From: a virus
Taxonomy: Duplodnaviria > Heunggongvirae > Uroviricota > Caudoviricetes
Direction: 5' to 3' (one strand)
IMG/VR virus record: IMGVR_UViG_3300031992_000025
Coordinates: 1-33,931 of that record
DNA: 33,931 bases
The notes beneath the pieces are model-generated. The model saw only the letters and a program-made list of their open reading frames with translations. It searched no databases and was not told the origin of the DNA. Shown here one piece after another: positions 105 to 33,564 of this stretch. Made by a program: the position numbers and the translations under genes. Every line of letters starts with the position of its first letter. Within the stretch, counting starts at the first letter, position 1.

Positions 105-509
105 ATGGGCTTTAATAAAATTAGAACAATTAGAGTTAGCGAACGTGTGTTCGATCTCGTATGTGAAGATCTCGACAATGAAGCAACAGAAAACTATGTT
201 AAAATTTCTGGATACTTAGAATGCTTTAACAATTGCAGAGAACAAGGTTATGTTCTTCACGTAGATTCCGTTGATTGGGATAATCCAAACAGAACTAAAA
301 CTGATTTAGTTATCTGGGCTTTCGAAGCAAGAAGTTCAGATGAGATTGTCGTCTCTTGGCAAACTGAATATCCTCACAATGGAATGTTTAGTGAAGAAAC
401 TTACAACAATCGTAGAAAATATTTCCATTACGATGAATTACAAAAAGCAGCAAAGTTCATTATCGATTTAGTTAAGGAACATTTTGCACACGAATTTAGA
501 GGTAATTAA
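105..509 (+). CDS. Hypothetical early protein, 134 aa
   Basis: Promoter at 53, GAGGT RBS, TAA stop. Confidence 0.85.
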   Translation: MGFNKIRTIRVSERVFDLVCEDLDNEATENYVKISGYLECFNNCREQGYVLHVDSVDWDNPNRTKTDLVIWAFEARSSDEIVVSWQTEYPHNGMFSEETYNNRRKYFHYDELQKAAKFIIDLVKEHFAHEFRGN

Positions 510-511
510 TT

Positions 512-850
512 ATGGAAGAAAAAGATTTATTTGAAGAAATGGTCGATGAATTAGACTTAAATGAAATAGATGATTTTGAAATTAAGCCAGCAACGTATCA
601 AGTGTGGATGCTTGGTTATACTGAAGCTGAAGCTATTACTGACTTTGAAGTTTTAGTTAATGAATCTAAAGATGCAGAGCGCATGGTTGAATATGCTAAG
701 AAATTTGTAGATGAAAAAAGATACGAAAGCTCTATGCCATTTCCACCAGAAGTTGCATACATCGAAGTGTTAGTAGAAACAGTTGTTGATCTTGGAAACT
801 ATGAGTCTAATGAAGGAACTTTGTTCACAGCAACTGTAAAAGTGAAATAA
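512..850 (+). CDS. Hypothetical acidic early protein, 112 aa
   Basis: Starts 2 nt after the previous stop; ORF track. Confidence 0.85.
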   Translation: MEEKDLFEEMVDELDLNEIDDFEIKPATYQVWMLGYTEAEAITDFEVLVNESKDAERMVEYAKKFVDEKRYESSMPFPPEVAYIEVLVETVVDLGNYESNEGTLFTATVKVK

Positions 851-902
851 TTGTTTACAACACGAATTTATTGTGTTATAATATAAAATGCGAGGTAAAA
901 TT

Positions 903-1214
903 ATGAGAAAGTATTTTAACAAAATCAGATCAAAGTATTTAGGTAGAAAATTCGGTAGATGGACTGTTACAAGAGTGACACCAGTTTACACAAAAGGCTC
1001 TACTCACATGCGTTATTATTTAAGTAGAAAAACACATGATGGCGCAACTAAGACTGTTGCAGTAAGTTGCACAACTATGACTGCATTAGGTCGTGGCGAA
1101 ACTGATATGCCAACTTTATTACGTGGTAAAATGTTTCAACGCAAACGTTTTCCAAGCAAAGAATTTAGAAACTCTGCTTGGTATACTTATAACACAAACG
1201 GTAGTTTAGAATAA
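903..1214 (+). CDS. Hypothetical basic protein, 103 aa (GRKFGRWTV N-terminus)
   Basis: Promoter at 854; GAGGT at 892-896 favours ATG 903 over 888. Confidence 0.75.
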   Translation: MRKYFNKIRSKYLGRKFGRWTVTRVTPVYTKGSTHMRYYLSRKTHDGATKTVAVSCTTMTALGRGETDMPTLLRGKMFQRKRFPSKEFRNSAWYTYNTNGSLE

Positions 1215-1242
1215 TTACCAACATCGAAAGGAGGAAGTTGCG

Positions 1243-2160
1243 ATGGCAAGTCAAACATTCAACAACTTCAAGAATTACGCAAATCAATTAGAGAAAGAAC
1301 TTGGTATTAAATATGATGCTAAGCCTTATAAAGATACTATCAGGGTTATGCTTGATGGTTTTTGCAAAGCAATGGACGAAGGCGATGAACATCTTAAGAA
1401 CTTATATATCAGTGGTTTAATCTTACGTCATTGGGATAAAGTAAAGAAACTTGCAGATAGTTGCCCTGGCATCGATCTTAAAGGTGAAGAGTTCGTCGAC
1501 TGGGTTTATGAAGCAATTATGCTTGCTTGCGAATATCGTAAATGGCAAAAAGACGGAAGTGTCAATGCCCAACAATGTATCAATCAATGTATTGAAACTG
1601 TTAGAGTTAGACACTATTATGAATATAACTTAGACAAACACAAAGCGAACTACAATACTGTATCTTTAGAAACACCGGTGTGCGAAGAAGGCGATAATGG
1701 TGTTCAAAAAACACTTGGTGATACTATTTATGATGAAGATGCAGCAGCAGAAGTTAGTATGTCAGACGGATTTTCAAATGCAAAGCAACTAATTCAATCT
1801 TTCATCAACAAGAATCGTTTAGTTGAGGCAATTATTCTAGACATCATTGCTTTTGGTGATACACAAAAAGTTACAAAACACATTAAGAAAGGTTTTGATG
1901 AAAATGGTGAGTCTTATAAGTATTCAACTTATACATCGGAATTTTGGAAATTCAAAGCAGTCCAAATTCTTGCTAACTTACCAGAAGATTACCAACAATA
2001 CTTTCTTGAAACTTATTTAGTTAAGACAGCAGCGTTAGAAGCAGCTCTAGACGTGTTAAAACGTGCTAATAATCAAAAGTTATACAAAGAATTGCAAAAT
2101 ACTTTAACTTATGCAAAAAGCGTCTTAAACATCGCGATTTGAAACGATAATAACAATTAA
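1243..2160 (+). CDS. Phage sigma70-like transcription factor; ends at 2142 (TGA) in code 11 or 2160 (TAA, adds WNDNNN) in code 4
   Basis: GGAGG RBS; helical region-2-like segment (LILRHWDKVKKLA...EEFVDWVYEAIMLACEY) and region-3.2-like VSLETPV...TLGDTI; motif recognition only. Confidence 0.55.
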
Positions 2161-2168
2161 AAACACAC

Positions 2169-2191
2169 AACCTCTCAAATTGGGAGGTTTT
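2169..2191 (+). terminator. Intrinsic terminator after the sigma-like gene
   Basis: AACCTCTC-AAATT-GGGAGGTT hairpin followed by T residues. Confidence 0.65.
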
Positions 2192-2224
2192 CACATTGTA
2201 TAATAAAGTGAGGTAAACGACACT

Positions 2225-2953
2225 ATGTGGTTAGATATAATGAGCCAGTATAATACATTACAAGTAAATATCAAATTGGCGAATTTGCTTGGTTTAGAAG
2301 TTGCTACTTATTGGGCAGCACTGATGGACGTGTATGCGAGAGTAGTAAATAAATATAAAGATGAGTTAGAAGCGAATTCAGGATATTTTGAACTCGACAG
2401 AGACTATATTACTAAGAGAACGACATTACAGTTAGACAAACAGTTAGAGATCGATGCAGGACTCGGTAAACTCGGCGTATTACAACATCGCAATGAAAAC
2501 GAACTGAATTGGATCACACTAGATGTAGAAAAGCTTTGTGCGATCTTAGTAGATGACAGTATCGATGCGATCAGAGATGTTCAACGCGTTTCTAAACTTA
2601 GACGAGAAGATACCGCTCGCGCCAAGAAAGCATCGGTCAGAATAAATTTAGTCGCTGCACTAAAAGAAACTGATCCAGATGTGCTTACAGCTTACAATAA
2701 CTGGATCGACGCACTATTGGAAGCTAAGAAGCCGATTACTAGACAAGCTTTGGATATATACCAGAATAACTTAAACAATTACACTGATAACAAACAGGCG
2801 AAGATTAAAATTCTTGAGATTGCAACAACAAATGCTTACACTGAATTTGCGTGGTCTATGAAAATTTACGAAAAAGATTATCGTGGCAATGGAACATTTA
2901 TTGGTGTAAAGCAAAATAGAACTAGTGGAATTGATCCGAATTCAGGTTTTTAG
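2225..2953 (+). CDS. Putative replication initiator / winged-HTH DNA-binding protein, 242 aa
   Basis: N-terminus (NIKLANLLGLEVATYW...GYFELDRDYITKRTTL...LGKLGVL) resembles the wHTH of phage replisome organisers; GAGGT RBS. Confidence 0.45.
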   Translation: MWLDIMSQYNTLQVNIKLANLLGLEVATYWAALMDVYARVVNKYKDELEANSGYFELDRDYITKRTTLQLDKQLEIDAGLGKLGVLQHRNENELNWITLDVEKLCAILVDDSIDAIRDVQRVSKLRREDTARAKKASVRINLVAALKETDPDVLTAYNNWIDALLEAKKPITRQALDIYQNNLNNYTDNKQAKIKILEIATTNAYTEFAWSMKIYEKDYRGNGTFIGVKQNRTSGIDPNSGF

Positions 2954-2965
2954 GAGAAATTTAGT

Positions 2966-3259
2966 ATGAATGAATTTATAGCAAGACGATCATTAGAAGA
3001 AGATGCACTTCTAGAATATATTTCGAAAGCAAGAGTGTTAGACGATCTGTATCATCGAACAGGTGAGTTAGAAGAAACTATTGAAGCGATGGATAAAAAC
3101 ATCGACGATGTTGAGGAAACTGGTTTAGATGAAATTGTAGAAGTGATGTGCAAAGCTCGCAACGCACTAAATTTAGAAAGACTTGACCTCGAAATTCAAA
3201 TTCACAAGTTAGAGCTTTGGTTGGCAGAATTCGAAAAAATAAGACAATTAACCCGATAA
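2966..3259 (+). CDS. Hypothetical coiled-coil protein, 97 aa
   Basis: AGGAG RBS; heptad-like Leu/Glu pattern. Confidence 0.8.
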   Translation: MNEFIARRSLEEDALLEYISKARVLDDLYHRTGELEETIEAMDKNIDDVEETGLDEIVEVMCKARNALNLERLDLEIQIHKLELWLAEFEKIRQLTR

Positions 3260-3275
3260 ATTCGGGTTTTTTATT
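3250..3275 (+). terminator. Intrinsic terminator
   Basis: AACCCGA-TAAAT-TCGGGTT followed by a T run. Confidence 0.8.
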
Positions 3276-3329
3276 ATTTTTTAGCCAAAAATAGTGATTT
3301 TTTCACTGTTTTTAGTAGTTTTTTCACTA

Positions 3330-3700
3330 AAATTTAGTGAGAATTTAGCTGCAGATCTGTAAATTTAGTGTGATGATCATGTAACTGATCTGCAATTTGT
3401 GACTGTAACTTGTAACACGATCTGTAGTCGATCTGTATTCTAGTGAAATTTGTGACGGCATCCAGATGCACTAAACAGATGAATCAGGTTGCTGATCAGG
3501 TCTAGTGAATGACTGGCCAGCGTTCTAGTGAAGCTTTACAGTAACTGATCAGATGAATCTGTGTCATCTAGTGTGATGTACAGTAACAGATGCAGTAATA
3601 AGTGCGATGTACAGTAACGATGCAGTACTGTGTAACTGGATTTTGTGCCACTAGACTGAAAACAGGTTGATTTCGTGCATGTGTATGTGCGTTTCTTTTT
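3330..3700. repeat. Non-coding motif island A (YTAGTG / GATC / CAGATGAATCTG family)
   Basis: YTAGTG at 3334, 3365, 3440, 3502, 3525, 3568; 7 GATC in 3354-3550; direct repeat GATGTACAGTAAC(A)GATGCAGTA at 3575-3597 and 3606-3627; lies between a terminator and a promoter. Confidence 0.8.
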
Positions 3701-3781
3701 AATAATAAATAAAATGAAAAAGTATTTACAATTGGTCTAGAAAGTGATATAATATATATATAGAGAGTGAGGAATAAACAA

Positions 3782-3985
3782 ATGCAAGTAGTTACAGTTG
3801 AACGATTATTAAAACTTTTACAAGAACAAGTTAACAAAGGTAATGGAAAGAAAAAGATTCTATTATCAAATGACGATGAAGGTAATGGTTATCACGAAAT
3901 GTATTACGAAATTACTGAAGACGTCGCAGGTAATGATATGTGGGGAGAAATTAGTAATCCCGACGAATATATTATCTTAGGTTAA
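3782..3985 (+). CDS. Hypothetical early protein, 67 aa
   Basis: Promoter at 3725; GAGGA RBS supports ATG 3782. Confidence 0.8.
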   Translation: MQVVTVERLLKLLQEQVNKGNGKKKILLSNDDEGNGYHEMYYEITEDVAGNDMWGEISNPDEYIILG

Positions 3986-4224
3986 TGGAGGAACTGATAA
4001 TGACAAGACAAGAACTCGATACACTTTGGGAACTCGCATGTAAACTTCGTAAGGAAAGACTTGAAGAGATTAAAAAAGAAAATGACTTCACAGAAGAAGA
4101 ACTTCAAGAATTAGTCGACGACCCTTACTGCGAAGACCTCTACGACATTGATGATGGTGATAACTTAATTCAAGGTTTAGACATTGTGATAAGTGTTGTA
4201 GAAGACATGAAACCAACTGAATAA
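3985..4224 (+). CDS. Hypothetical acidic protein, 79 aa
   Basis: TAATG stop/start overlap with the previous gene. Confidence 0.8.
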   Translation: MEELIMTRQELDTLWELACKLRKERLEEIKKENDFTEEELQELVDDPYCEDLYDIDDGDNLIQGLDIVISVVEDMKPTE

Positions 4225-4310
4225 AAAAGTTTAAAGTAGACGTAAAAAAACGTTTACTTTTTCTTTTAAACGTGATATAATATTTATAGAATAAAGAGAG
4301 GTAAAAAACA

Positions 4311-4763
4311 ATGCAAGGACCAAAAGAAAAATATAATGCTGAAAAAGTATTAGAAAGATTAGAAGCAATGATTGAAAGAGGTTGCTCAAGAGAGATTAGA
4401 CAAGTCTATGACGAATTATCAATCTTCGACTGGTGGCCAGAAAGATTAACTATCACTCACATGAAACAAATGAGATCATTCTTGAGAGAAGCAATCAAGT
4501 TAGGTTATACTGGTTATGTTTGCTTTAAAGTCGGTGCTTCTGGTTGTGCTAATGGAATGTGGGCACACAAAGAAGAAGGTAAGGTAGAAGGTAAAGATGT
4601 CTACTCACCAGATGGCGATGCTATTTACAGAAGTTTCACACCTGATTACACTTATTGGTCATTTAATAAGAATGGCAAGTGGCTTCCAGACGGTGATACT
4701 CGTGGAACATACGACTCACTCAAAACCGCAAAGATGCTTGAAGAAGCACTTGCAAATGCTTAA
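4311..4763 (+). CDS. Hypothetical early protein, 150 aa
   Basis: Own hairpin and promoter (4253), GAGGT RBS. Confidence 0.85.
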   Translation: MQGPKEKYNAEKVLERLEAMIERGCSREIRQVYDELSIFDWWPERLTITHMKQMRSFLREAIKLGYTGYVCFKVGASGCANGMWAHKEEGKVEGKDVYSPDGDAIYRSFTPDYTYWSFNKNGKWLPDGDTRGTYDSLKTAKMLEEALANA

Positions 4764-4840
4764 ATAAAAAACTAAAAAGAAGTAAAAAACTATTTACTTC
4801 TTTTTTATTTTGTGGTATAATATATGTAGAGGATGAGAGT

Positions 4841-4999
4841 ATGAGGTATAATGTTAAAATTAAACTAAACAAAAATACACTTTACGAAGTTGAAGTTGAA
4901 GCAAGAAATGAAGCTGAAGCAATGTGCTTCGCTTACGACCAAATGGAATTAAATACTTATGCGGAGGCAAAAAGAATTTATGAAAGCAAAAAATTATAA
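4841..4999 (+). CDS. Small hypothetical protein, 52 aa (MRYNVKIKLNKNTLYEVEVEARNEAEA...)
   Basis: Directly after promoter 4793 and GAGGA; below the ORF-track size cutoff. Confidence 0.7.
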   Translation: MRYNVKIKLNKNTLYEVEVEARNEAEAMCFAYDQMELNTYAEAKRIYESKKL

Positions 5000-5300
5000 T
5001 CAAGTATTAAGAGCTCGCGGTTATAAAGCGAGAGAACTTAGCAAGTATGAAGGAATTTGTATCTACGAAAAAGTTCATAAGTTTAACAAGATAGTTTGCT
5101 ATGTTAAAAAAGACTCACATGGCAAAGGTCAAGAAATGACTTTCAATATCTATAGCACTTTGAAAACACCACAAGATATGGTTGAGTTTAAAGAGCAAGA
5201 ATTTGATAGAAGTTATCTTGCTAAAGAAGCAAATGCAATTCACGATGCTTTTGAAAAACTAAAAGACTTAAAAGCACCTAAACACTTATATTGTTTCTAA
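4980..5300 (+). CDS. Hypothetical protein, 106 aa
   Basis: GGAGG at 4963-4967 supports ATG 4980. Confidence 0.8.
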   Translation: MKAKNYNQVLRARGYKARELSKYEGICIYEKVHKFNKIVCYVKKDSHGKGQEMTFNIYSTLKTPQDMVEFKEQEFDRSYLAKEANAIHDAFEKLKDLKAPKHLYCF

Positions 5301-5367
5301 AAATTAAAAAAGGCTATTTACAAAGTAGCCTTTTTATGTTATAATATAATTGTAGGGAGAAAGAAAT

Positions 5368-5658
5368 ATGAAATACAAGATTTACCAAATTACAAACTAC
5401 AATGACTGCGATTATAAATTTGAATGGTGGGACTGGGCCAAAGAGAAATTTAACTTTGAGAGAGATTACTCATTAGTTTATGAAGGCGAGATTGAACTTG
5501 AAACCGATCCGATTTCAACACTTGAAAAACTATTTGAGATATTCAACATCAATCATCCAGCAGATTTTAGAGGTCACAGTTTGTCAGTCAGTGATGTTGT
5601 TGAGTTAGATGGTATTAAGTATTATTGTGACTCACAAGGTTGGGTAAAATTAAACTAA
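5368..5658 (+). CDS. YodL-like domain protein, 96 aa
   Basis: YKIYQI...LEKLFEIFNINHPADFRGHSLSVSDVVEL...YYCDS matches the YodL-family signature; own promoter at 5317. Confidence 0.75.
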   Translation: MKYKIYQITNYNDCDYKFEWWDWAKEKFNFERDYSLVYEGEIELETDPISTLEKLFEIFNINHPADFRGHSLSVSDVVELDGIKYYCDSQGWVKLN

Positions 5659-5729
5659 AAAATTTAATTAAAAAATTTATATAAAAATTAAAGGAGGTTC
5701 GTTGTATAATATAATAGGAGGCTATAGTT

Positions 5730-5945
5730 ATGAGATTAGAAGAAGGCAAATTAATTCTATCTGAGGCTGAACTTGCTGAAGTTAAAAAAGCAAACGTAAT
5801 GGCAAGCCCAAGCATTGCTGGTCTTTATCTACGTAGTTTTCTTAGAAATAAAAATTTAGTTGAAGACTTAGAAACACAACCTGATGTTAAATTTTATACA
5901 GAATGCGTGCAAGCATATAGAAGAAAGAATTTTGAAGTAAAATAA
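5730..5945 (+). CDS. Hypothetical protein, 71 aa
   Basis: TTGTATAAT at 5702-5710 and AGGAGG RBS. Confidence 0.8.
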   Translation: MRLEEGKLILSEAELAEVKKANVMASPSIAGLYLRSFLRNKNLVEDLETQPDVKFYTECVQAYRRKNFEVK

Positions 5946-6004
5946 AAAAAGTATTTACATCGTTTCACTAATATGTTATAATATATGTGTAAGCGAGGTA
6001 GTTT

Positions 6005-6301
6005 ATGCGAAACACAATTAAAAAAGAAACTGATATTTTCAAAAAAGATTTATCAAAAGTAGAAGGCTCTTACACAAAGTGTATTAGCGATAACATTAAC
6101 TTGATTTATGATCTTGGCGTCGATACTAAAGTCGATTTAGTTACATTTGTAAACAAGATTATAGATATAATTAAAGATGCAAAAGACACAGATGCAAAAC
6201 GAAACTTTTTAGTTAAGTTAAAAATGCAAAGAAGTAAAATGCACGCATTAGAATTTGTAAACAATGCATATCTTCGTGGCTGTGGTCTTGAAGCAATCTA
6301 G
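6005..6301 (+). CDS. Hypothetical protein, 98 aa
   Basis: Promoter at 5954, GAGGT RBS. Confidence 0.8.
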   Translation: MRNTIKKETDIFKKDLSKVEGSYTKCISDNINLIYDLGVDTKVDLVTFVNKIIDIIKDAKDTDAKRNFLVKLKMQRSKMHALEFVNNAYLRGCGLEAI

Positions 6302-6316
6302 AAAGGACGAACCACT

Positions 6317-6688
6317 ATGAACGACAGACGACTTGTCAAAAACACAGAAAACCCAGCAATGTTAGTTTTCTATCTTAACAAGCACAGAAAAGAAATTAAG
6401 CGTATTGCTGATGCCCCAAAAGGAACTTACACATTAACTGAATTTTATCGTGTAGTTAAACCAGCATTTATTGAAGCACCAAGCAAACCTTACACCAATG
6501 CAACTATTAATAAATATAGTGCAACAGTAAGACGTGGTAAAGCAAGTGCTGAATCACAAGCAAGATCAATTATGTATGTGCTTGAAAGAAATGATGAACT
6601 TTATGGTTATGGTGGAGGCAATAGAAAACCTCTTGAACCAAAAGATATTATTTCTGACGAAGAATTAGCAATGCTTGAAACAAAGTAA
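6317..6688 (+). CDS. Hypothetical basic protein, 123 aa
   Basis: AAGGA RBS; followed by a terminator. Confidence 0.8.
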   Translation: MNDRRLVKNTENPAMLVFYLNKHRKEIKRIADAPKGTYTLTEFYRVVKPAFIEAPSKPYTNATINKYSATVRRGKASAESQARSIMYVLERNDELYGYGGGNRKPLEPKDIISDEELAMLETK

Positions 6689-6704
6689 TACATTAAACAA
6701 ACAA

Positions 6705-6742
6705 AAATAAAGTTAGCGTATAAAACGTTAACTTTTTATTTT
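6705..6742 (+). terminator. Intrinsic terminator before island B
   Basis: AAAGTTAGCGT-ATAAA-ACGTTAACTTT hairpin (G-T wobble) followed by a T run. Confidence 0.7.
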
Positions 6743-6749
6743 ATATTAG

Positions 6750-7080
6750 CAGATGATGAATTTAGTGCATGATGAATTTAGTGTGAAAGCTACAGACTGT
6801 GATCGCAGCTTTATCCGACGATCAGTTAGCTGTTACGATTCTAGTGTGAAAGCTGCAGATCAGAAGCTGATCTTTTACAGCTGCATCGATCTATATTCTA
6901 GTGTGAATCACCACAGATCGTGGATACAGATTCATCTGCAATGTACGATCATGTCTAGTGAATCAGACTACGATGTTGATGAAAACAGTACGATTTCGAG
7001 CATTTGTTAGTGAACAAAAACATGATCTGCAAAGTTTTGTTCGCGATTTCATGTAGTAAACTGTTACAAAAATTTGCAAC
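6750..7080. repeat. Non-coding motif island B
   Basis: ATGATGAATTTAGTG tandem at 6753 and 6769; YTAGTG at 6762, 6778, 6841, 6898, 6955, 7007; TTCTAGTGTGAA twice; 8 GATC in 6801-7027; CGATCTATATTCTAGTG (6887) matches 3429-3445 at 16 of 17 positions. Confidence 0.8.
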
Positions 7081-7121
7081 AAAACGTTTACATCGAAACA
7101 CTAATGTGATATAATATAAGT

Positions 7122-7418
7122 ATGGAAGTAAAGATAACTAAACTTAACAACTTACAAATATGGCCAACTGGTTTTATTACAGTATCAGCGGTTCATTTTA
7201 AATTAGATGATGAAGATTATTTCTTGCATTACTCTGGCGAAGAATACGAAGACCATTTGACTTTATATAAAGGCAGAAACAAATGTCATCTTACTCGTAT
7301 TAGTTCTTGCTATGGAACATTAGATGACTTTATTAAATTCACAAAAAAGCCAAGATGTTTAAAGTATGTTGATACAGAAAACTTTATTGAGAAGTTAAAA
7401 GAAAAACATTTACTTTAA
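7122..7418 (+). CDS. Hypothetical protein, 98 aa
   Basis: Follows promoter 7087; nearly leaderless. Confidence 0.75.
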   Translation: MEVKITKLNNLQIWPTGFITVSAVHFKLDDEDYFLHYSGEEYEDHLTLYKGRNKCHLTRISSCYGTLDDFIKFTKKPRCLKYVDTENFIEKLKEKHLL

Positions 7419-7460
7419 TTTAAAAGTGTGTTATAATATTAATAGTGAGGTAAGAAAGAA

Positions 7461-7835
7461 ATGATTGATAAACAAACATTAGAAAACTTTAGGCAAGACT
7501 TCAATGAAGCAATGAAAGATTTAGAAACAAAGTATGGTTTTGTAATCGAACTTGGACGTATCACTTATACAGCAACAAGTTTCACCGGCAAACTCGAAGT
7601 CAATGAAGGTGATAGCAAAGACGACGTTAATGAAAAAGACTTCTATAAGTATTGCTCTATGTATGGCTTAAGTAAAGACGACTATGATAGACGTTTCACT
7701 TTCCAAGGCAATGATTATATTGTAGTTGGCATTAGACCAAGCAAACGCAAATACCCGATTTGTTGCCAGCAAGTTCAAAACGGCACCACTTATGGTTTCA
7801 CCGCTGAGTGTGTTAAACGTTGCTTAGGCAAATAA
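7461..7835 (+). CDS. Hypothetical phage protein, 124 aa
   Basis: Promoter at 7409, GAGGT RBS. Confidence 0.85.
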   Translation: MIDKQTLENFRQDFNEAMKDLETKYGFVIELGRITYTATSFTGKLEVNEGDSKDDVNEKDFYKYCSMYGLSKDDYDRRFTFQGNDYIVVGIRPSKRKYPICCQQVQNGTTYGFTAECVKRCLGK

Positions 7836-7894
7836 GAGAAGAATAAAACTTCTCTTTTTTATTTACAAAGTTCGAGAAACATGTTATAATATAT

Positions 7895-8323: not shown

Positions 8324-8410
8324 AAATAAAAAGAAAAGTAAGTAGAAAAACTATTTACTTTTTTTCTTTTGTGTGTTATAATATATATGTAGAGAAGAGG
8401 TATACTAATT

Positions 8411-9195: not shown

Positions 9196-9240
9196 AACCT
9201 CTTCTTTTTTTATTTACACAGTACGTAGAACATGATATAA

Positions 9241-25285: not shown

Positions 25286-25294
25286 TGAAAATTA

Positions 25295-25323
25295 TTTACA
25301 AATGCCTCTATTTATTGTATAAT
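25295..25323 (+). promoter_or_regulatory. TTTACA-N17-TATAAT promoter for def-ligase
   Basis: Exact spacing. Confidence 0.75.
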
Positions 25324-25342
25324 ATAAATAGAGGTTTTTATT

Positions 25343-25810: not shown

Positions 25811-27105
25811 TGTTAGTAAAATTTAAGCAATTTGTAGATGAAATTACGGCAGAAGCTGGACGAAATTATAAAATCTCGGTCTTAGAGAAATATAAAGATG
25901 ATGAAGATATTAAATATCTTTTAGATTTTATCTATAATCCATATATTACTACTGGTATTTCTGACAAAAAGTTACATAAAAAATTGTCAGATATTTGTGT
26001 TATGCCATATCTAAACTCAGATGGTTTTAAAGTACTTTTACAATATCTTAAAGTAAATAATACTGGCACTGATAAAGATATTGCACTTCTTCAAGATTTT
26101 AAAGTTAGACATTTTGGTTATTCTTATGACAGTGAACCAACTGAGTTATGTAAATTATTTGATACTATTGTTACTAAAAATGTTCAACTTGGTATTGACT
26201 CAAAGACAATTAATAAAGTTATTCCAGGTCTTATTCCAGAATTTAATGTTCAATTAAGTAATAAATATTTTGACAAACCAGAAGTAGTTGAAGGCAAAAA
26301 ATTTGCAATAACAACTAAAATAGATGGCTCAAGAATTATTGCTATGAAAGATGATGGCAAAGTTAGTTTCTGGACTCGTCAAGGCCAAAAGTATGAAGGT
26401 CTTGTTGATTTAGAAGAAGAATTAAAATCAATGACGTTTGATAATTTTATTTTAGATGGTGAAATTGTAGCTATTAATTCAGATAAAGAAAATACATATA
26501 AAAATACTATGAAATTAAGCCGAACAAAAGAGCTAGAAAAGCATGGCTTAAAAATGTTAGTATTTGATTATATGCCAATTGCTAATTTTAAGGTTCAGAA
26601 ATGCCCAATGTCATATGAGACAAGAAGAGCAGCATTATCTTTTATGTTTGAGTCTGCAATAAAGTATGAATACTTTGAATTGTTGCCACTTCTTTATGTC
26701 GGTAAAGATACTGCTATGATCACTAAAATTTTAGATGAACAAGTAGCTAATGGTGAAGAAGGCATAATGATTAATATTCTAGATGCTCCTTATGAATTCA
26801 AGAGAAGCAATAATCTTCTTAAATGTAAAAAGTTTCAAGATACTGAATTAAAAGTTATTGGCTTTGAAGAAGGGACAAATAAACTTGCCGGAACTCTTGG
26901 TGCCTTTGTATGCAAATATAAAGATAATGAAGTCAGAGTTGGCTCAGGCTTATCAGATGAAGATAGAGCTTATTTTTGGGCCAATAGAGACAAGTTTTTA
27001 GGTAAATTTATTACAGTTAAATACTTTGAAACTTCTGTTGATTCTAAGACAGGTTTAGAAAGTTTAAGATTCCCAATTTATATGAGAGTTAGAGAGGACT
27101 TGTAA
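25810..27105 (+). CDS. ATP-dependent DNA ligase, 431 aa
   Basis: KIDGSR (motif I), LDGEIV, EGIMI, LLKCK, OB-fold VGSG...LRFP. Confidence 0.9.
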   Translation: MLVKFKQFVDEITAEAGRNYKISVLEKYKDDEDIKYLLDFIYNPYITTGISDKKLHKKLSDICVMPYLNSDGFKVLLQYLKVNNTGTDKDIALLQDFKVRHFGYSYDSEPTELCKLFDTIVTKNVQLGIDSKTINKVIPGLIPEFNVQLSNKYFDKPEVVEGKKFAITTKIDGSRIIAMKDDGKVSFWTRQGQKYEGLVDLEEELKSMTFDNFILDGEIVAINSDKENTYKNTMKLSRTKELEKHGLKMLVFDYMPIANFKVQKCPMSYETRRAALSFMFESAIKYEYFELLPLLYVGKDTAMITKILDEQVANGEEGIMINILDAPYEFKRSNNLLKCKKFQDTELKVIGFEEGTNKLAGTLGAFVCKYKDNEVRVGSGLSDEDRAYFWANRDKFLGKFITVKYFETSVDSKTGLESLRFPIYMRVREDL

Positions 27106-27106
27106 A

Positions 27107-27388
27107 TTGATTATTGAAATTTCTGAAAATGGAAAACATAAAATCGTAGAGTATCCAGGCTATTTTAAAAAATATGAAAATGGTCATTTTAGACAGTGTG
27201 TTAGTAAAAAACAATTTGACTTTTTTATAGAAGATGATATTCATGGAAGCTATATGTTTTTTGATTATAAAAAGAAGATTATTTATTTTCATGAATGGGA
27301 AGACCCAGTATTAACAGGCGACTGCGATTATGCTTGGGGCATATCTTGTGAATATAAAAAGAAAGTATTTAATATTTGGGCAAATTAG
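27107..27388 (+). CDS. Hypothetical protein, 93 aa
   Basis: TTG start with GAGGA RBS. Confidence 0.65.
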   Translation: MIIEISENGKHKIVEYPGYFKKYENGHFRQCVSKKQFDFFIEDDIHGSYMFFDYKKKIIYFHEWEDPVLTGDCDYAWGISCEYKKKVFNIWAN

Positions 27389-27398
27389 AAAAAAGGTG

Positions 27399-27427
27399 TT
27401 TACAAGCATCTTTTTTTGTTGTATAAT
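27399..27427 (+). promoter_or_regulatory. TTTACA-N17-TATAAT promoter with the -35 inside a terminator loop
   Basis: AAAAAGGTGT-TTACAA-GCATCTTTTT hairpin. Confidence 0.75.
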
Positions 27428-27446
27428 ATTATTAGAGGTTTTAAAA

Positions 27447-28910
27447 ATGTTTAAGAAAAAAATTGAATTAATTAAACCAATTAATTATCCCAAAGACATT
27501 CAAGATAATCCTACTTTTATGTTTGGTGTTGACAATCGTATTTATCGTAGTTTATATAATTTATTTGAAGCTTTTTGGATTTATCATAAAAAAGAATTAT
27601 ACTTAGTTGGCGGTGTTGTCAGGGATTTATTATTAAATAAAACACCAAAAGACTATGATTTAACAACTAATGCATCAATTGAAGAAATCCGTGAAATTTG
27701 TGCTGAGTTAAATCTTAAAACATTTGATAGTGGTGTAAAACATGGAACACTTACAATTATAGATGAATTTTATAAAACATCTTATGAATGCACAGTTTAT
27801 CGTAAAGATGGTGAATACACAGATGGTAGACATCCTGATACTGTTGAATTTGTTTCTAGCTTAGAAGAAGATTTAAAGCGCCGCGATTTCACAATTAACT
27901 CTTTTGCTTATGATTTTATTAGACAAGAAATTTTAGCTTTAGATGAGTCTTATTTTAGAGACTTAGAATATGGTATTATTAGAACTGTCGGCAATGCAGA
28001 AGATAGATTTAATGAAGATGCTTTAAGAATGCTTAGAGCTCTTAGATTTTCTGCTCAATTAAACTTTAGTATTGCTAACGATACTTTTGAAGCAATTAAA
28101 AAATTATCTAAGAATTTATTTAAGATTTCCAAAGAAAGAATTAGAGATGAGTTAACTAAAATTCTTTTAAGTGATAATCCACAAGTTTTAGAATTATTTG
28201 TTATTACAGGTTTAGAAGCATACGCCTTTGATGGAATTACCCCTATTGGTGATATCTTAAACTGTGAGCATCAAAACCCATGGCACTATACAGATGTTTT
28301 CCATCATACAATGGACGTTGTTAAAAGAGTGCCAAAGACATTTGAGCTTAGATGGGCAGCATTAATGCATGACTTTGGTAAGCCAGCTGTTAAAGAATTA
28401 AAAGAAGGAACAGTTGATCATTATCATTATCATGGTCATCAAGATGTTTCTGTAGAAATTGCTGAGCAGCTTACAGACATTTTAAAGTTTTCAAATGAAC
28501 AAAAAGACTTAGTAGTTAAATTCATTAAATATCATGATGCAGATTTAGCAACCTGTAGAAATGGAACCTTCAAAAGAATACTTGCTGATATTGGAATTGA
28601 ACATTTCTTAGATTTTATGAAATTAAAACTTGCTGATGCTTATGCGCATCAGTTAAGAAAAGATACTAAATGGGCAATTGAAGTTCCAGATAAAGTATAT
28701 GAACGATTTGCTAAGGTTATTGAAGAGAGCCAAGCATTAACAGTTAGAGATCTCGATATTAATGGCTATGACTTAATGGAGCTTGGTTTAAAAGGTAAGC
28801 AGATTGGCGATTGTTTAAATTACTTAGTTGAAAATGTTTTAGAAGATGCTAATTTAAATGATAATAAGCAGTTAATCGAACTTGTTAAGCAATTTATCAA
28901 AAACTTATAA
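27447..28910 (+). CDS. cca: Class II CCA-adding enzyme / tRNA nucleotidyltransferase with HD domain, 487 aa
   Basis: VGGVVRD, DYD, DLKRRDFTINS, EDALRMLRALRF, SKERIRDEL, H...HD; ATG 27447 after the promoter and GAGG. Confidence 0.88.
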   Translation: MFKKKIELIKPINYPKDIQDNPTFMFGVDNRIYRSLYNLFEAFWIYHKKELYLVGGVVRDLLLNKTPKDYDLTTNASIEEIREICAELNLKTFDSGVKHGTLTIIDEFYKTSYECTVYRKDGEYTDGRHPDTVEFVSSLEEDLKRRDFTINSFAYDFIRQEILALDESYFRDLEYGIIRTVGNAEDRFNEDALRMLRALRFSAQLNFSIANDTFEAIKKLSKNLFKISKERIRDELTKILLSDNPQVLELFVITGLEAYAFDGITPIGDILNCEHQNPWHYTDVFHHTMDVVKRVPKTFELRWAALMHDFGKPAVKELKEGTVDHYHYHGHQDVSVEIAEQLTDILKFSNEQKDLVVKFIKYHDADLATCRNGTFKRILADIGIEHFLDFMKLKLADAYAHQLRKDTKWAIEVPDKVYERFAKVIEESQALTVRDLDINGYDLMELGLKGKQIGDCLNYLVENVLEDANLNDNKQLIELVKQFIKNL

Positions 28911-28917
28911 AAGGGCG

Positions 28918-28946
28918 TTTACAAACGCCTTTTTTCGTTGTATAAT
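28918..28946 (+). promoter_or_regulatory. TTTACA-N17-TATAAT promoter with the -35 inside a hairpin
   Basis: AAGGGCGTTT-AC-AAACGCCTTT. Confidence 0.75.
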
Positions 28947-28981
28947 ATAATAAGGAGTTTTCTCAGAAAGGAGAACAAATT

Positions 28982-30160
28982 ATGAATGATAAAGATTTTG
29001 AAGTTTTTGTTAATCATATCGATAAAGTAGATTTATCAAATTCTATTAATATTTCAAAAGAAGATGAAAAGAAGCTTTTAGATGCACTAGCAAATCCGCC
29101 AGAGCCAAATGAAGAGCTTAAGAAACTTTTTGTTGGCTATGCAGAAAAGCTTAAAGAATTATTTCCAAGAAGTGTTTGGGATTGCTACCAGATGATTGCT
29201 GATGAAAAAGAACTCAGATGGTTTTTTGATCATGTTATTCAAAAGCCACAAGTTAATGAATCTTATTCAGCTGTTTTTGTTAGCCGTCATAAAAAGCTTA
29301 CAAAAGAAGAACAAGAGACCATTGGGCTCACAAGAAAAGAGGCAGAATTTTTAGCTACACAGACTTTTAGATTAGCTGGTTTTAAAGATGCTTTTAATAT
29401 TGATGAAGAAAATAGTTGGACTTTTGATAGGTTTTTACAAAGATTAAAAAGATTTAATGTCGATAAGGGTGCTTACACAACTTCTAAAGGTGAGCCAATT
29501 CCAAGTAAGACATTAGCTATTATTTTCTATGTTAACCCTTGTGATGATATTAAAGTCTGCAGAGAATTTTTTAATCAATATTTAGATGTTAGTCAATCAA
29601 TTTCAAAGGCTATGTTAGGTGGAAAAACTTATACAGATAATTTACATGGCTATCAATGGTTTGGCAATGCTGAGAATAATTTAAAACATTTAAAAGCAAA
29701 CCAAAAAGGAACTAGATACTGGATGGATTTTGATATCGATGTTCCAGCATGGTTTAGACAAACTGAACAAAACGGGTTTGATAAATTAGATTATGACAAA
29801 GTTCCAGCAGGATTATGCGATGTATGGGTCATGGAAGCAAGCAAGTATTATAAAGAAATGCTTGAAAAACTTAATGCCAGGTTTGGTAAAGGTAATTATG
29901 TTATTGTTGATACATCTGGCGGTTATCACATTTTAGTTAAAACTTCAGCTATCAAATCTAATCCACATGATTTCTGTAAAGAAGTTGAAGCAATCTATAA
30001 ACAAGGCGTAGCAGATGGATATCAAGAATACTTAGATGAAAAGGGTGTCTGTAAATTTGAATGTATTGTTAATGATTCTCAAATTCCAGGTTTACCACTT
30101 CCAGGCACTTATCAATATGATAGACCGGTTACAGTTCTTAATAAGGAGGACTTTGAATAA
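28982..30160 (+). CDS. Divergent AEP (primase-polymerase)-like protein, 392 aa
   Basis: YWMDFDID (DxD) and DTSGGYHIL (SxGxH) motifs; motif recognition only. Confidence 0.45.
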   Translation: MNDKDFEVFVNHIDKVDLSNSINISKEDEKKLLDALANPPEPNEELKKLFVGYAEKLKELFPRSVWDCYQMIADEKELRWFFDHVIQKPQVNESYSAVFVSRHKKLTKEEQETIGLTRKEAEFLATQTFRLAGFKDAFNIDEENSWTFDRFLQRLKRFNVDKGAYTTSKGEPIPSKTLAIIFYVNPCDDIKVCREFFNQYLDVSQSISKAMLGGKTYTDNLHGYQWFGNAENNLKHLKANQKGTRYWMDFDIDVPAWFRQTEQNGFDKLDYDKVPAGLCDVWVMEASKYYKEMLEKLNARFGKGNYVIVDTSGGYHILVKTSAIKSNPHDFCKEVEAIYKQGVADGYQEYLDEKGVCKFECIVNDSQIPGLPLPGTYQYDRPVTVLNKEDFE

Positions 30161-31080
30161 TGAGCCAATGGACGCATATTAGAGGCGGACTTGAATTAGT
30201 CAGCACCCCATACGAAATGAAGAAAATGCCTAAATCTTTAGTCGAGCCAAAGAAAGAAGACTTTGAGACTGAAGAAGCATTTGAAAAAGCCCACGATAAA
30301 TATAGATATGAAGTAAGAAAACTTTTCTATTACCCATATCCAGAAGAGCAATTTAAGCTTTTAATGCCAAAGCCAGGCATGTCTTATGGCAAAAAGAAAA
30401 AGAATGGAAAACGTGAAGAATTTCATACTATTGACTTTGAAGCTAAGGTTTATTCTTTGCCACGCGCTAGAAAATATATTGAAGAAGCATTTAAGCTTAT
30501 GCCACAAGGCGAACTAGGTTTTAGATATAGTCTTGACCAAAATGATAATGATAGCTCTTCAAGCTGTAGTGGCTTTATGATTCCTTGTGAATATAAAGCA
30601 TATCAAGATGCTCTTAATAGATTATATAAAGCGCAAAATCCATTCGACTCTTATACTTATGAAGATTTGCGTAGATGGTTCCATATTGATGATGAATGTT
30701 CAGTAGACGAAGTTAGCCACATTATAGTTGGTATTAGAGATGATATTAGATATGCTTCTGCTGAGGAAGTTCAAGAAGGTTTAGAGAAAGCATTTAAATA
30801 CTTAGAAGACCATGAAATTTCAGTTGAAGATGGGTATCTTGAGTGGCAAGATGAGTACGAACCAAGTTATATTTATGCTTGGAGAAACAGCAGATTAAGT
30901 TTTGGAATTTCCCACCAATTCCTTAAATTAGATAAAAGAACAAATCAAGTAGTTCATTCTAAAACATGGGCAGTTAAACGTGATGAAAATGGCAAGAGAA
31001 TGTATGATGAAGACTGGAATACTATTTGGGAAGTTGTTGAAAAAGATGGGCCATTTATTGATAAGGAGGATCTTGAATAA
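30160..31080 (+). CDS. Hypothetical protein, 306 aa
   Basis: AGGAGG RBS, TAATG overlap. Confidence 0.85.
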   Translation: MSQWTHIRGGLELVSTPYEMKKMPKSLVEPKKEDFETEEAFEKAHDKYRYEVRKLFYYPYPEEQFKLLMPKPGMSYGKKKKNGKREEFHTIDFEAKVYSLPRARKYIEEAFKLMPQGELGFRYSLDQNDNDSSSSCSGFMIPCEYKAYQDALNRLYKAQNPFDSYTYEDLRRWFHIDDECSVDEVSHIIVGIRDDIRYASAEEVQEGLEKAFKYLEDHEISVEDGYLEWQDEYEPSYIYAWRNSRLSFGISHQFLKLDKRTNQVVHSKTWAVKRDENGKRMYDEDWNTIWEVVEKDGPFIDKEDLE

Positions 31081-31334
31081 TGGAAACTAATATTAAAGTT
31101 CATTCTGAAGTATCTGTTCCACTTGGTACACTTAGTTGGATAGTTTGGGTTGTATTCATGATTATGGATTATGGCTGTCATATGGACTGGATCATAAATG
31201 CCAATAATGCAGTTAAAGCTGGTGGGCATTTCTGGACCTGGTTTCCATTTTGGCTCCCATTTGCATTATTTGGTGTTAGCTTGATTCTTTCTTTAATAGT
31301 ATTTTTAATTGCGCTTGCTATAGAAAATAGATAA
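31080..31334 (+). CDS. Two-TM membrane protein, 84 aa
   Basis: Two hydrophobic segments; AGGAGG RBS. Confidence 0.8.
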   Translation: METNIKVHSEVSVPLGTLSWIVWVVFMIMDYGCHMDWIINANNAVKAGGHFWTWFPFWLPFALFGVSLILSLIVFLIALAIENR

Positions 31335-31335
31335 T

Positions 31336-31626
31336 ATGAGTAGAGTAAAAACAAATAATACAGACCATGCTTATTTTAGAGCAGCTGAGCGTTGTGGCTG
31401 GGGTAAAAAGAAAGCTAGAGAAATGATGAAGCTTGCTTCTAGGTATGGCACAGCGCCCGGCAATTTATCAGATGGACCTATTAAAGATTTTTTAGCAGCT
31501 AGGCAGGATTTTACACCAAGAAGAGTAAAATTATATCAAGGGTATGTGTTTATTTTCTGCTCAACTAGCACAAGATGCATAACAGTTTATCCACTTCCAG
31601 ATGAGCTCAAAAAGATAACAAATTAA
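31336..31626 (+). CDS. Possible RelE/DUF4258-like RNase-fold protein, 96 aa
   Basis: TDHAYFRAAER N-terminus and CITVYP C-terminus. Confidence 0.4.
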   Translation: MSRVKTNNTDHAYFRAAERCGWGKKKAREMMKLASRYGTAPGNLSDGPIKDFLAARQDFTPRRVKLYQGYVFIFCSTSTRCITVYPLPDELKKITN

Positions 31627-31640
31627 GTTATCTTTTTTTA
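31608..31640 (+). terminator. Intrinsic terminator
   Basis: AAAAAGATAAC-AAATTAA-GTTATCTTTTT. Confidence 0.75.
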
Positions 31641-31673
31641 ATTGTATAATATAAAGATAAATGGAGTATATTT

Positions 31674-32048
31674 ATGAATAAATATTTAGATGCACTTTGA
31701 AATTTAAAATTACGTGTAGATGCATATAATGAGCAAGATCAAGATGCAAATAATGCTTTTGATATTTTAAAAGAGCTTATTGATAGAGTAAGTACAGTAG
31801 ATACTGCTGAAGCTGTTACACAAGATACTTTTAAAGCTCTTGAGATTATGAAGAAGCACGTTGAAGTTCAAGACCACCCAGATATGTTTTTTCATCGTGA
31901 AATGCCAGAGCGAGTAATAATTGACTTGCGATATCTAATTGATACAGGTGGTTGGTCAAAAAAGCCAGAAAATATGGAAGAAAATAATGCTGAGTATAAT
32001 TTAGTTAAACGTGTGCTTGGTTTACCAGAATATAAGGAGACTAAGTAA
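31674..32048 (+). CDS. Hypothetical protein, 124 aa in code 4 (TGA at codon 9)
   Basis: GGAG RBS and ATG 31674 in frame with the 31848 ORF; the only break is TGA 31698. Confidence 0.75.
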
Positions 32049-32049
32049 T

Positions 32050-32304
32050 ATGACAAAAGAAGAATTACTCAAAGCCATGGAGACTTCAGCTACTGTTGAA
32101 ACTCTTTATAAAAATGAAGCATATATTATAGAAATTGAAGTTGGGGACATGCCAAAAGAGCATCTCAAAAATTATTTAGAGGTTATTGCTGACCGACTTC
32201 ACAATTTGGGAATTCAAGACTTTATTCTTGCTCCAACATGTAATGGTCAAGGTCGCTTTAAATTTTACAGACTAAAAGATAAACATCTTTTTGAGGTAGA
32301 CTAA
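32050..32304 (+). CDS. Hypothetical protein, 84 aa
   Basis: AAGGAG RBS supports ATG 32050. Confidence 0.75.
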   Translation: MTKEELLKAMETSATVETLYKNEAYIIEIEVGDMPKEHLKNYLEVIADRLHNLGIQDFILAPTCNGQGRFKFYRLKDKHLFEVD

Positions 32305-32305
32305 T

Positions 32306-32695
32306 ATGTTTTATGAATTATATGATTGGGATCATGATACTGAAGAAAAAGAATATCACTTGATTAACCTAGATGAAGTCCTTCAAGTTAATAAAACTAA
32401 TGGTATTTATGAGCTTAGAAATCAAAGAACTGGCCAAGTAATGAACTATTACAGAATGACCGTATACTACACAGGAAAGGGTAATAGTTGGACTTTTTAT
32501 TATAGAAGTGAATCAGAAAGACATCTTGCTTATGAAGAGCTAAAAAAAGCTATGAGAGAATTTAGAATTTTACCAGCTGAGCCAGTAAACCCAAATGATA
32601 TTAAAAATATCTTAGAAGAAAAATCAAATATTTTTGATGAAATACTCAGAAATCCAGGTCAAATTGATATTCCAGAAGTAAAACTATGCGAGTAA
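32306..32695 (+). CDS. Hypothetical protein, 129 aa
   Basis: GAGGT RBS. Confidence 0.8.
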   Translation: MFYELYDWDHDTEEKEYHLINLDEVLQVNKTNGIYELRNQRTGQVMNYYRMTVYYTGKGNSWTFYYRSESERHLAYEELKKAMREFRILPAEPVNPNDIKNILEEKSNIFDEILRNPGQIDIPEVKLCE

Positions 32696-33321
32696 TATTC
32701 TTAGATATAGATGGCGTGTTAAATGCAGACTGTGATTTTGGCGGAAGAAGTAAGCCAAATCCATATGTCACTACTGAATATGGCGAAAGATATTGTGGCA
32801 TATGTAAATCTCACATAAAAGCATTGAAAGAATTAGTTGAAAAAACAGATGCAAAAATAGTATTAGTTTCTTCTTGAAAACGTGATTATGTAGATTACAT
32901 AAAGCATGGGTATCAAAATAGTATTGGAAAATACTTATATAATAAGTTACGTAGCGCAGGATTAAAGATATTTGATACGACGCTTAGCTATGATTTTAGC
33001 GATGGGAGAAATCGTGGTTATGAAATTAGCCAATGATTAGAAAATCATCAAGAGGTAGACAGTTGAGTTGTATTAGATGATGAAAAATTTAGAGATTATG
33101 ATTTTTTAAAGATAACACCGAATTTGATACTTACTGATCCAGCCCTTGGACTTTGAAAGCTTCCAGCTTTGCAAGCAGTCTATAAATTAACAGGTAAAAA
33201 AGATCCTTGATTAGAAGCCCATGAAAAATTTGCTAAACTATGCAGCGAAATGATTGCAACAGTTATTCCTGAGGTAGAAAAACAAGAGCCTGTAATCATT
33301 AAGCCAGAAATGGAGGATTAA
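32686..33321 (+). CDS. HAD-superfamily protein (Swiss-Army-knife RNA-repair-like HAD type), 211 aa in code 4 (5 TGA, 0 TGG)
   Basis: IFLDIDGVLN...IVLVSS-W...RGYEISQ-W-LENH...S-W-VVLDD; TGA at 32875, 33034, 33064, 33154, 33208. Confidence 0.8.
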
Positions 33322-33324
33322 TTC

Positions 33325-33564
33325 ATGGACTATGAATGAATGGCAAATAGGTTAATTAATAATGAGTATGCTGAAGATATGCCAGAGTTAGACAAAGAGG
33401 AATGTGAGAAGCTACTTAAGCTTATTTCAGAAAAAACTGGTAAGACACATTTATTAATCGTTAATGTAAACATTGAGCTAGACGGAATTTGCTATGATTA
33501 TCTGCTAGATAATAATGATACTAATAAAGTCTTAATTAATGAATGAGATAATAGATACCTATAA
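33325..33564 (+). CDS. Hypothetical protein, 79 aa in code 4 (TGA at codon 5 and near the C-terminus)
   Basis: GGAGG 8 nt before ATG 33325; TGA at 33337 and 33544; TAA at 33562. Confidence 0.7.

Follow-up and report, generated by a model that had tools for sequence, protein, structure and literature searches.

Tryptophan TGA codons and three promoter classes in a large, AT-rich tailed phage

The stretch of DNA analyzed here (the window, 33,931 bases) is the first part of a single IMG/VR record of 146,538 bases, IMGVR_UViG_3300031992_000025 (the 146.5-kb contig), from a tailed phage of the class Caudoviricetes; its subject is how the codon TGA is distributed among genes that stand behind different classes of promoter. 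The contig has a guanine-plus-cytosine content of 32.7%, nearly every gene lies on the plus strand, as do all the window features described below, and there are 38 tRNA genes at 44-62 kb. CheckV rates the contig as 64% complete, without terminal repeats. Its closest complete relative, G001, is a 237,392-base record (nrdD identity, 84%), of which about 85 kb, holding the head protease, major head protein, and tail sheath, has no counterpart in the contig by protein-level synteny. Furthermore, a relative that is 90% identical to the last gene of the contig runs on into this same virion module. By the estimated completeness and the unmatched part of G001, the contig is a fragment that is missing the virion core, and the window makes up the left third of a large, AT-rich, and tRNA-rich phage genome, itself incomplete (about 64%). 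The closest relative, L007, is collinear with the window over 14.2-29.8 kb, and two more distant ones, G002 and G003, are standard-code relatives with other promoters (TTGAC-N17-TATAAT).

Genes were called on the plus strand with TGA kept open, starts being chosen by a ribosome-binding site or a promoter within the open reading frame (ORF), and ORFs that overlapped tRNA genes or lay inside noncoding islands were removed. Each gene was then assigned to the nearest upstream intergenic motif, which could be TTTAC-N17-TATAAT (class E), TTGTATAAT without a -35 element (class X), or GCTAAATTA (class L). TGA-rich ORFs at 3450-3617, 6769-7056, 8868-9182, and 9128-9340 were left uncounted, as they fall in noncoding islands or overlap a better gene at 8852-9052. 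The gene-free islands, at 3330-3700, 6750-7080, and 9128-9660, yield spurious TGA-rich ORFs (the first, second, and fourth of those just listed) when read under code 4, and no Rfam family matched within them at gathering score.

All three motifs are much commoner than chance predicts and keep almost wholly to the plus strand. The class E motif, searched as TTTAC-N16-18-TATAAT, has 17 sites in the window, where 0.48 would be expected, and in the contig it has 23 on the plus strand and 2 on the minus strand. YTGTATAAT, which marks class X, also occurs 17 times in the window (1.9 expected), with many of the sites coming after a terminator hairpin. The class L motif GCTAAATTA is found three times in the window (1.2 expected), which is not significant by the window alone; the contig has 24 copies on the plus strand and 1 on the minus strand, compared to about 3 expected, and none of the 24 falls within a gene body. 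In the first 9 kb the E sites have the canonical extended -10 (TGnTATAAT), and at 25-29 kb their -10 is the TTGTATAAT one also seen in class X. Three distinct, strand-specific motif classes precede functionally distinct gene sets. Class X genes encode replication, nucleotide, and RNA-repair enzymes, mostly TGA-free, and a few TGA-rich accessory proteins, and class L has tail fibers, homing endonucleases, PhoH, and the nrdD operon in this phage, and the whole virion module in G001. Among the relatives compared, this vocabulary of three motifs is common only to this phage, L007, and G001. No Sigma70_r2 domain was found in the contig or G001, in a search that divergent gp55-like factors would escape. 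The genes that start at 7122, 14142, 14647, 16558, 21983, 23031, 24704, and 33844 have no ribosome-binding site and have a TATAAT that begins 11-14 nucleotides before the ATG, and they therefore look leaderless.

The left end of the window, 53-9052, is an early block of about 19 small genes with no sense TGA and 40 TGG codons. Twelve TTTAC-N17-TGnTATAAT promoters stand in it, at 53, 854, 3725, 4253, 4793, 5317, 5954, 7087, 7409, 7862, 8354, and 8799, and two -35-less TTGTATAAT units begin inside it, at 2196 and 5702. A previous account of the window, made from the letters and their ORFs alone (the sequence-only reading), had reported no internal TGA and 42 TGG codons for 105-9195, and our recount gives no sense TGA and 40 TGG codons. 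Its tally of 11 TGG and no TGA for 9907-12878 was confirmed; this region, from 9875, consists of three -35-less YTGTATAAT units with promoters at 9875, 10987, and 11675. The late-type motif TGCTAAATTA then appears at 12927-12936, ahead of a gene at 12972-14090 that encodes 372 residues without a family match and has 6 TGA and 7 TGG codons. Units without a -35 element follow at 14128-17792 (promoters at 14128, 14631, and 16537; 2 TGA and 24 TGG), and they include gene 15259-15894, with a TGA at codon 7 that is TGG in L007, and a DNA methyltransferase gene at 16936-17412, with a TGA at codon 69.

The next unit, 17806-21288, begins with TGCTAAATTA at 17806, a hairpin, and GCTAAATTT at 17872, after which comes the nrdD operon, with 3 TGA and 11 TGG codons in total. 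One TGA is found in each of its genes, at 18682-18684 in nrdD (17947-20127), at 20352-20354 in the gene for a formate/nitrite-type channel (20127-20789), and at 21073-21075 in nrdG (20761-21288). All three genes stand behind GCTAAATTA in this phage and in L007, and nrdD does so in G001. A hairpin with a T run lies between GCTAAATTA and the start of nrdD in all three phages (window, 17806-17946; L007, 3586-3745; G001, 135751-135910), and a second GCTAAATTT is seen after it and before nrdD in this phage and L007; the hairpin and T run may be a leader or an attenuator. Another TGCTAAATTA, at 21316, opens the unit 21316-21905, which has two small genes, at 21354-21593 (4 TGA and 0 TGG) and 21666-21905 (1 of each).

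Units without a -35 element return from 21967 to 25285, their promoters lying at 21967, 24291, and 24690. They hold a leaderless gene for an EcoRI-type adenine methyltransferase at 21983-23029 (2 TGA and 3 TGG), genes at 23031-24260 (0 TGA and 10 TGG), a 66-residue gene at 24423-24623 with a TGA at codon 6, and a gene at 24704-25285 (0 TGA and 10 TGG). A second early-class block, 25295-31626, has TTTAC-N17-TTGTATAAT promoters at 25295, 27399, and 28918 and no TGA among its tryptophan codons, all 31 being TGG; its genes include an ATP-dependent DNA ligase (25810-27105), a tRNA nucleotidyltransferase (27447-28910), and five more. The last unit, 31642-33564, is a -35-less one whose promoter at 31642 follows a terminator hairpin. 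It has 8 TGA and 3 TGG codons with no GCTAAATTA-like motif nearby, and the TGAs are in genes 31674-32048 (1 TGA, 1 TGG), 32686-33321 (5 TGA, 0 TGG), which has a HAD_SAK_2 domain, and 33325-33564 (2 TGA, 0 TGG).

The gene counts in the sequence-only reading were reproduced. TGA is present in seven of the eight genes of 16936-23029 and in three of the five of 31674-33564, and it is indeed the sole tryptophan codon of genes 21354-21593, 32686-33321, and 33325-33564. For 23031-31626 its 51 TGG codons were found again, whereas its statement that the region is free of TGA fails at codon 6 of gene 24423-24623, which is TGG in L007 and hence a real sense codon. This TGA had been overlooked, as had a second one at 2140-2142 in the early gene 1243-2160, discussed below.

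The alignments identify the amino acid. The TGA at nrdD codon 246 aligns with a tryptophan in PDB ID 9d3x, and across 80 related loci the positions that have TGA in the window are occupied by TGG (42), TGA (4), tyrosine (83), phenylalanine (17), and glycine (0). Three window genes have TGA at positions that are TGG in L007. By these comparisons TGA stands for tryptophan. Glycine (code 25) and selenocysteine were considered as well and are ruled out by the aligned residues, which are tryptophan, tyrosine, or phenylalanine and never glycine, and by the tRNA(UCA) of G001, which is 75 nucleotides long with a tryptophan-type acceptor.

Counts of tryptophan codons by promoter class, given as TGA/TGG, are 1/65 (E), 13/67 (X), and 14/19 (L) for the window and 1/86, 25/215, and 88/163 for the contig. 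G001, an independent replicate, has 1/54, 37/273, and 366/108, and the 14 kb of L007 have 0/7, 1/18, and 5/14. The TGA share of tryptophan codons is therefore 1%, 10%, and 35% in classes E, X, and L of the contig and 2%, 12%, and 77% in those of G001. A chi-square test on codons gave p = 9e-7 for the window and p = 9e-16 for the contig, a gene-level comparison of E with L in the window gave p = 3e-5, and shuffling class labels among transcription units gave p = 0.047 for the window and p = 1.5e-4 for the contig, so that the association suggested by the window holds in a contig-wide tally per transcription unit. Class E has no sense TGA among 86 tryptophan codons in the contig, and none among 55 in G001, where the single TGA is the next-to-last codon of its gene; the earlier statement that nothing behind a TTTAC-N17-TATAAT promoter needs readthrough is thus borne out in both genomes. 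The broader statement, that TGA use tracks promoter class, holds cleanly for the two extremes, E and L, and not for class X, which is mixed, its transcription units ranging from 0/10 to 8/3. Replication genes at 106-146 kb of the contig are TGA-free. Called genes end in TAA or TAG throughout, with one probable TGA exception, at 2140-2142. A 274-residue gene of no known family (contig 139119-139943; G001 3278-4102) has TGA for all four of its tryptophans in both phages; it lies in an operon of replication type that has no TGA elsewhere, and its product may be delayed on purpose.

The distribution reflects selection. We compared codons at conserved positions of 60 reciprocal-best orthologue pairs between the contig and G001 and found that conserved tryptophans differ in codon, TGG in one phage and TGA in the other, at 30 of 56 positions (54%) in late-late pairs and at only 3 of 97 (3%) in all other pairs (p = 3e-13). 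Conserved lysine, glutamate, and glutamine codons differ at similar rates in the two groups (21.5% versus 24.9%; not significant, p = 0.17), and mean protein identity is also much the same (50% versus 53%). Since synonymous divergence and identity are equal, the difference in tryptophan codons is due to selection rather than to drift or gene origin, and it indicates that the change from TGG to TGA is specifically blocked in nonlate genes. A TGA distribution that is random once gene origin is accounted for, which the sequence-only reading had named as grounds for giving up its proposal, is not what we found. Exchanges between late orthologues go largely one way, with 28 positions that are TGG here and TGA in G001 and 2 of the reverse.

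The TGA at 2140-2142 is the sole in-frame TGA behind an early-class promoter. It ends the early gene 1243-2142, and a backup TAA stands five codons on, at 2158-2160. The orthologues of this gene in G001 and in another relative, L102, have their TAG stop at that exact position, 24 residues past a shared NNQKLYK motif, and for this reason we take the TGA to be a true stop. By this comparison, TGA is a stop in one early gene and tryptophan in the late genes of the same genome, and no other feature within the genome points as directly as the codon at 2140-2142 to a standard code at the start of translation. Near-terminal TGAs in general were also considered as fossil stops, an idea that was not upheld, as their enrichment is marginal here (9/113 versus 16/454; p = 0.07) and absent in G001; orthologous stops support the early-gene case alone.

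The sequence-only reading had extended the gate to nucleotide metabolism and DNA methylation, and both extensions are overstated. The single TGAs of nrdD, the channel gene, and nrdG have no counterpart in the same genes of G001, and TGA is almost absent from nrdD in 80 relatives. Both TGA-bearing methyltransferase genes, 16936-17412 and 21983-23029, are accessory insertions, missing from L007. TGA in the nrdD operon and in the methylases is a consequence of late expression or mobility and not a conserved gate.

A compact set of candidate decoding genes is present in G001. One TGA-free stretch of 3.7 kb (229814-233430) encodes a tRNA-Trp(UCA), a full-length Lon protease of 789 residues (Pfam Lon_C match, 2e-77), and a bacterial-type tryptophanyl-tRNA synthetase (TrpRS; 5e-90 to solved TrpRS structures). 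The tRNA gene, with an AGGGG/CCCCT acceptor stem and G73, starts eight bases past a TTGTATAAT promoter, and Lon and TrpRS share a second TTGTATAAT promoter after it. Of the tRNA-Trp(UCA), release factor 1 (RF1), and TrpRS genes that the sequence-only reading had proposed to look for, G001 has the tRNA and the synthetase, and the 146.5-kb contig has none. An RF-1 domain was found in none of five relatives. In E. coli, a comparable TrpRS:tRNA(UCA) pair from a phage puts tryptophan in at UGA and competes with release factor 2 (RF2) (PMC12636597), and the Lon of G001 might act on RF2; no mention of a Lon protease within a code-change module was found in the recoding literature searched. A search of IMG/VR with the anticodon arm of the G001 suppressor returned a few other tryptophan-like tRNA(UCA) genes and none from this phage. 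Homologues of TrpRS (56-59% identical to that of G001) occur near nrdD or PhoH in two relatives, L103 (contig CAVBGZ010000007.1 of a Waltera intestinalis metagenome-assembled genome [MAG]) and L101, and no tRNA(UCA) was found in the fetched flanks of either.

Several other RNA features were noted. The tRNA-Trp(CCA) of this phage (contig 45918-45991) matches the UCA suppressor of G001 at 72% and the tRNA-Trp(CCA) of G001 at 66%. A tRNA at contig 48045-48118, whose Rfam score is 49 bits, has six bases in its anticodon loop (TATTAA) and receives no assignment from ARAGORN; it was rejected as a suppressor, since UAA or AAU, and not UGA, is the most that this loop could read. In G001, a tandem pair of c-di-GMP-I riboswitch aptamers (65 and 61 bits; 221962-222149) lies upstream of gene 222199-222909.

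The host is most likely a standard-code Bacillota bacterium of the gut or rumen. Shine-Dalgarno sites, sigma-A type -35/-10 promoters, and a Holin_LLH domain point to Bacillota. Contigs with relatives of nrdD, some phage-like and some bacterial, come from MAGs labeled Bacilli, Erysipelotrichaceae, Clostridia, Mollicutes, Prevotella, and Treponema, and host assignment by such binning was set aside, as the taxa are too mixed and binning is not the same as assigning a host. Of 16 such MAGs tested, rpoB was found in 14 and is without an in-frame stop in all of them, the one labeled Mollicutes included. These rpoB genes, the standard code of the more distant relatives G002 and G003, the early TGA at an orthologous stop, and the selection against TGA in nonlate genes are hints of a standard code in the host.

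The reading that we favor, and consider probable, is that this is a phage of a known kind that switches TGA from stop to tryptophan during infection of a standard-code host. Genes behind the strong, host-type promoters TTTACA-N17-TATAAT would be translated before suppression exists and would thus have no sense TGA, one of them using TGA as its stop; class L genes would be made once TGA is already read as tryptophan, so that AT mutation bias would let TGG drift to TGA. Decoding of TGA in this lineage would be supplied by a phage tRNA-Trp(UCA) together with a phage TrpRS, and the equivalent genes of this phage are probably in the missing third of its genome. The sequence-only reading had likewise proposed entry under the standard code followed by a code switch. 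That proposal is supported in part, by the assignment of TGA to tryptophan, its concentration behind GCTAAATTA and its exclusion by selection behind -35-containing promoters, the early TGA stop, and the TGA-free tRNA-Trp(UCA) and TrpRS genes of G001, while its timing and the host code are what we infer; the model itself had already been published (Borges et al., bioRxiv 10.1101/2021.08.26.457843).

Several observations weigh against a timed switch. No tRNA(UCA) was found in the 146.5-kb contig with ARAGORN, the Rfam tRNA model, BLAST with the G001 tRNA(UCA), or a regular expression for the UCA anticodon arm, and searches for Pfam RF-1, dCMP/cytidine deaminase, and class-Ib synthetase domains had no match in it, giving no release factor or TrpRS; this says little, because a third of the genome is missing. 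Borges et al. (bioRxiv 10.1101/2021.08.26.457843) detected a suppressor tRNA in no more than 35% of the code-4 phages. The order E, then X, then L would follow from analogy with T4 and SPO1 and from gene content. The suppressor tRNA of G001 stands behind a -35-less TTGTATAAT promoter, nothing ties class X to a phage factor, and if the host RNA polymerase reads class X as soon as infection begins, a gradual switch and not a gated one would result. Class X itself is heterogeneous, consisting mostly of TGA-free units and yet including 31642-33564, which is TGA-rich without a late motif. Finally, the major head protein of G001 (33682-35001) has 0 TGA and 4 TGG codons despite lying in a late unit with 77% TGA, and expression level therefore also shapes TGA use. 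The last three of these points would equally be expected without any timed gate, if suppression were early and inefficient owing to RF2 competition, and TGA were tolerated only where a lower or noisier output is harmless (fibers, endonucleases, and accessory genes) and purged where output must be high or exact, promoter class correlating through gene function. In E. coli, RF2 does limit how far a phage TrpRS:tRNA(UCA) pair can suppress UGA (PMC12636597). We nonetheless think this explanation unlikely. Behind -35-containing promoters neither of the two genomes has a single sense TGA among its tryptophan codons (140 in all), the late units of G001 have a TGA share near the A-ending share of other two-fold codons, which is hard to square with costly decoding, and a 2,457-residue late protein with 11 TGAs requires efficient readthrough.

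A host with code 4 as its native code, such as a gut bacterium akin to Mollicutes, would read TGA as tryptophan throughout, and the TGA-free genes would then have some other cause, such as recent acquisition from a standard-code source. No gene of the contig needs a TGA stop, apart from one in which readthrough adds only six residues, and some nrdD relatives are on contigs of MAGs labeled Mollicutes or Mycoplasmatota. Five common families of peptidoglycan hydrolase (Amidase_2, Amidase_3, GH25, NlpC/P60, and M23) have no match in this phage or G001, the Holin_LLH being the only lysis-type match, and a wall-less host is compatible with that test. We hold a code-4 host to be very unlikely all the same: it gives no reason for selective removal of TGA at conserved tryptophan sites of nonlate genes, the TGA-free set includes core replication genes of both phages and so is no recent import, the TGA at 2140-2142 sits at an orthologous stop, G001 brings its own TrpRS along with its tRNA(UCA), the rpoB genes of the MAGs are free of in-frame stops, and standard-code hosts are predicted for such clades by Borges et al. 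An effect of evolutionary rate or gene origin, by which fast or mobile genes gain TGA through AT bias and slow genes keep TGG with timing irrelevant, would suit the homing endonucleases and accessory methyltransferases that are among the TGA-richest genes, and also the slow gene nrdD, with its one TGA here. It is largely refuted, and scarcely credible to us, given the 17-fold difference at conserved tryptophan codons between late and other genes of equal identity and synonymous divergence and the in-place swaps of TGG and TGA in late orthologues. In the other direction, the genome could embody something newer, with both senses of TGA, a three-tier promoter clock, and a module whose Lon removes host RF2 as a new form of termination silencing, or with no UCA tRNA at all and a tRNA-Trp(CCA) edited or modified to read TGA; we regard this as quite unlikely.

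Phage T4 has early sigma-70 promoters, middle promoters, and late TATAAATA promoters read by gp55/gp33. Like T4, this phage has three strand-specific promoter vocabularies, with a short AT-rich late element about 30-55 nucleotides before late genes, and late units that hold virion genes, as seen in G001. The comparison is one of organization and not of demonstrated homology. The Sigma70_r2 search of both genomes had no match, and the present cascade differs in that the nrdD operon sits in the late class and in being coupled to the meaning of a codon.

The closest known systems are the Jade, Sapphire, and Agate phages, for which Borges et al. (bioRxiv 10.1101/2021.08.26.457843) described standard-code early and replication genes, late genes with TGA as tryptophan, a midinfection switch, and Firmicutes/Bacteroidetes hosts; the earlier remark that recoded gut phages with the recoded codon enriched in late genes are known agrees with their report. 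These too are large, low-GC phages of the animal gut in which TGA encodes tryptophan in structural, lysis, and other late genes, replication genes keep the standard code, TGA is nearly unused as a stop, and a suppressor tRNA is detectable in some genomes only. As the contig has no terminase, the comparison is one of kind and not of clade placement. In two Jade phages, TrpRS, RF1, and suppressor tRNA genes form a standard-code "code change" operon (Borges et al.), which the G001 cluster resembles, except that this phage and its relatives have no RF1 and the G001 module includes a Lon protease. The term "promoter" is absent from that paper, whereas here three sequence-defined promoter classes are linked to recoding; "late promoter" was not found in the ten recoding papers listed out of 29 matches, and the explicit link may be new to print. 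Recoding of TAG to glutamine is known in crAss-like and Lak phages (PMC9523058 and PMC7886860). They share with this phage a stop codon reassigned in late genes, standard-code hosts, and phage suppressor tRNAs, with validation by proteomics for the crAss-like group, and differ from it in codon, amino acid, host phylum (Bacteroidota), and phage lineage. Phages of Mycoplasma and Spiroplasma, whose hosts natively use code 4, similarly have AT-rich genomes and read TGA as tryptophan, but in them TGA is expected in all gene classes, and the early genes of the present phage exclude it as a sense codon, one of them ending with it.

No new principle emerges from this analysis; rather, a published model is sharpened into a testable form. 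Whether a gene may carry TGA can be predicted almost perfectly from which of three short, sequence-defined promoter classes it stands behind, and, given a host or a cell-free system, these promoters could serve to study the time and the manner in which a phage changes what a codon means. G001 offers a compact candidate code-change module of tRNA-Trp(UCA), Lon, and TrpRS, whose TrpRS:tRNA pair is of a kind already exploited for genetic-code expansion. For annotation of this phage family, TGA should be read as tryptophan in late units and the standard code applied in early units.

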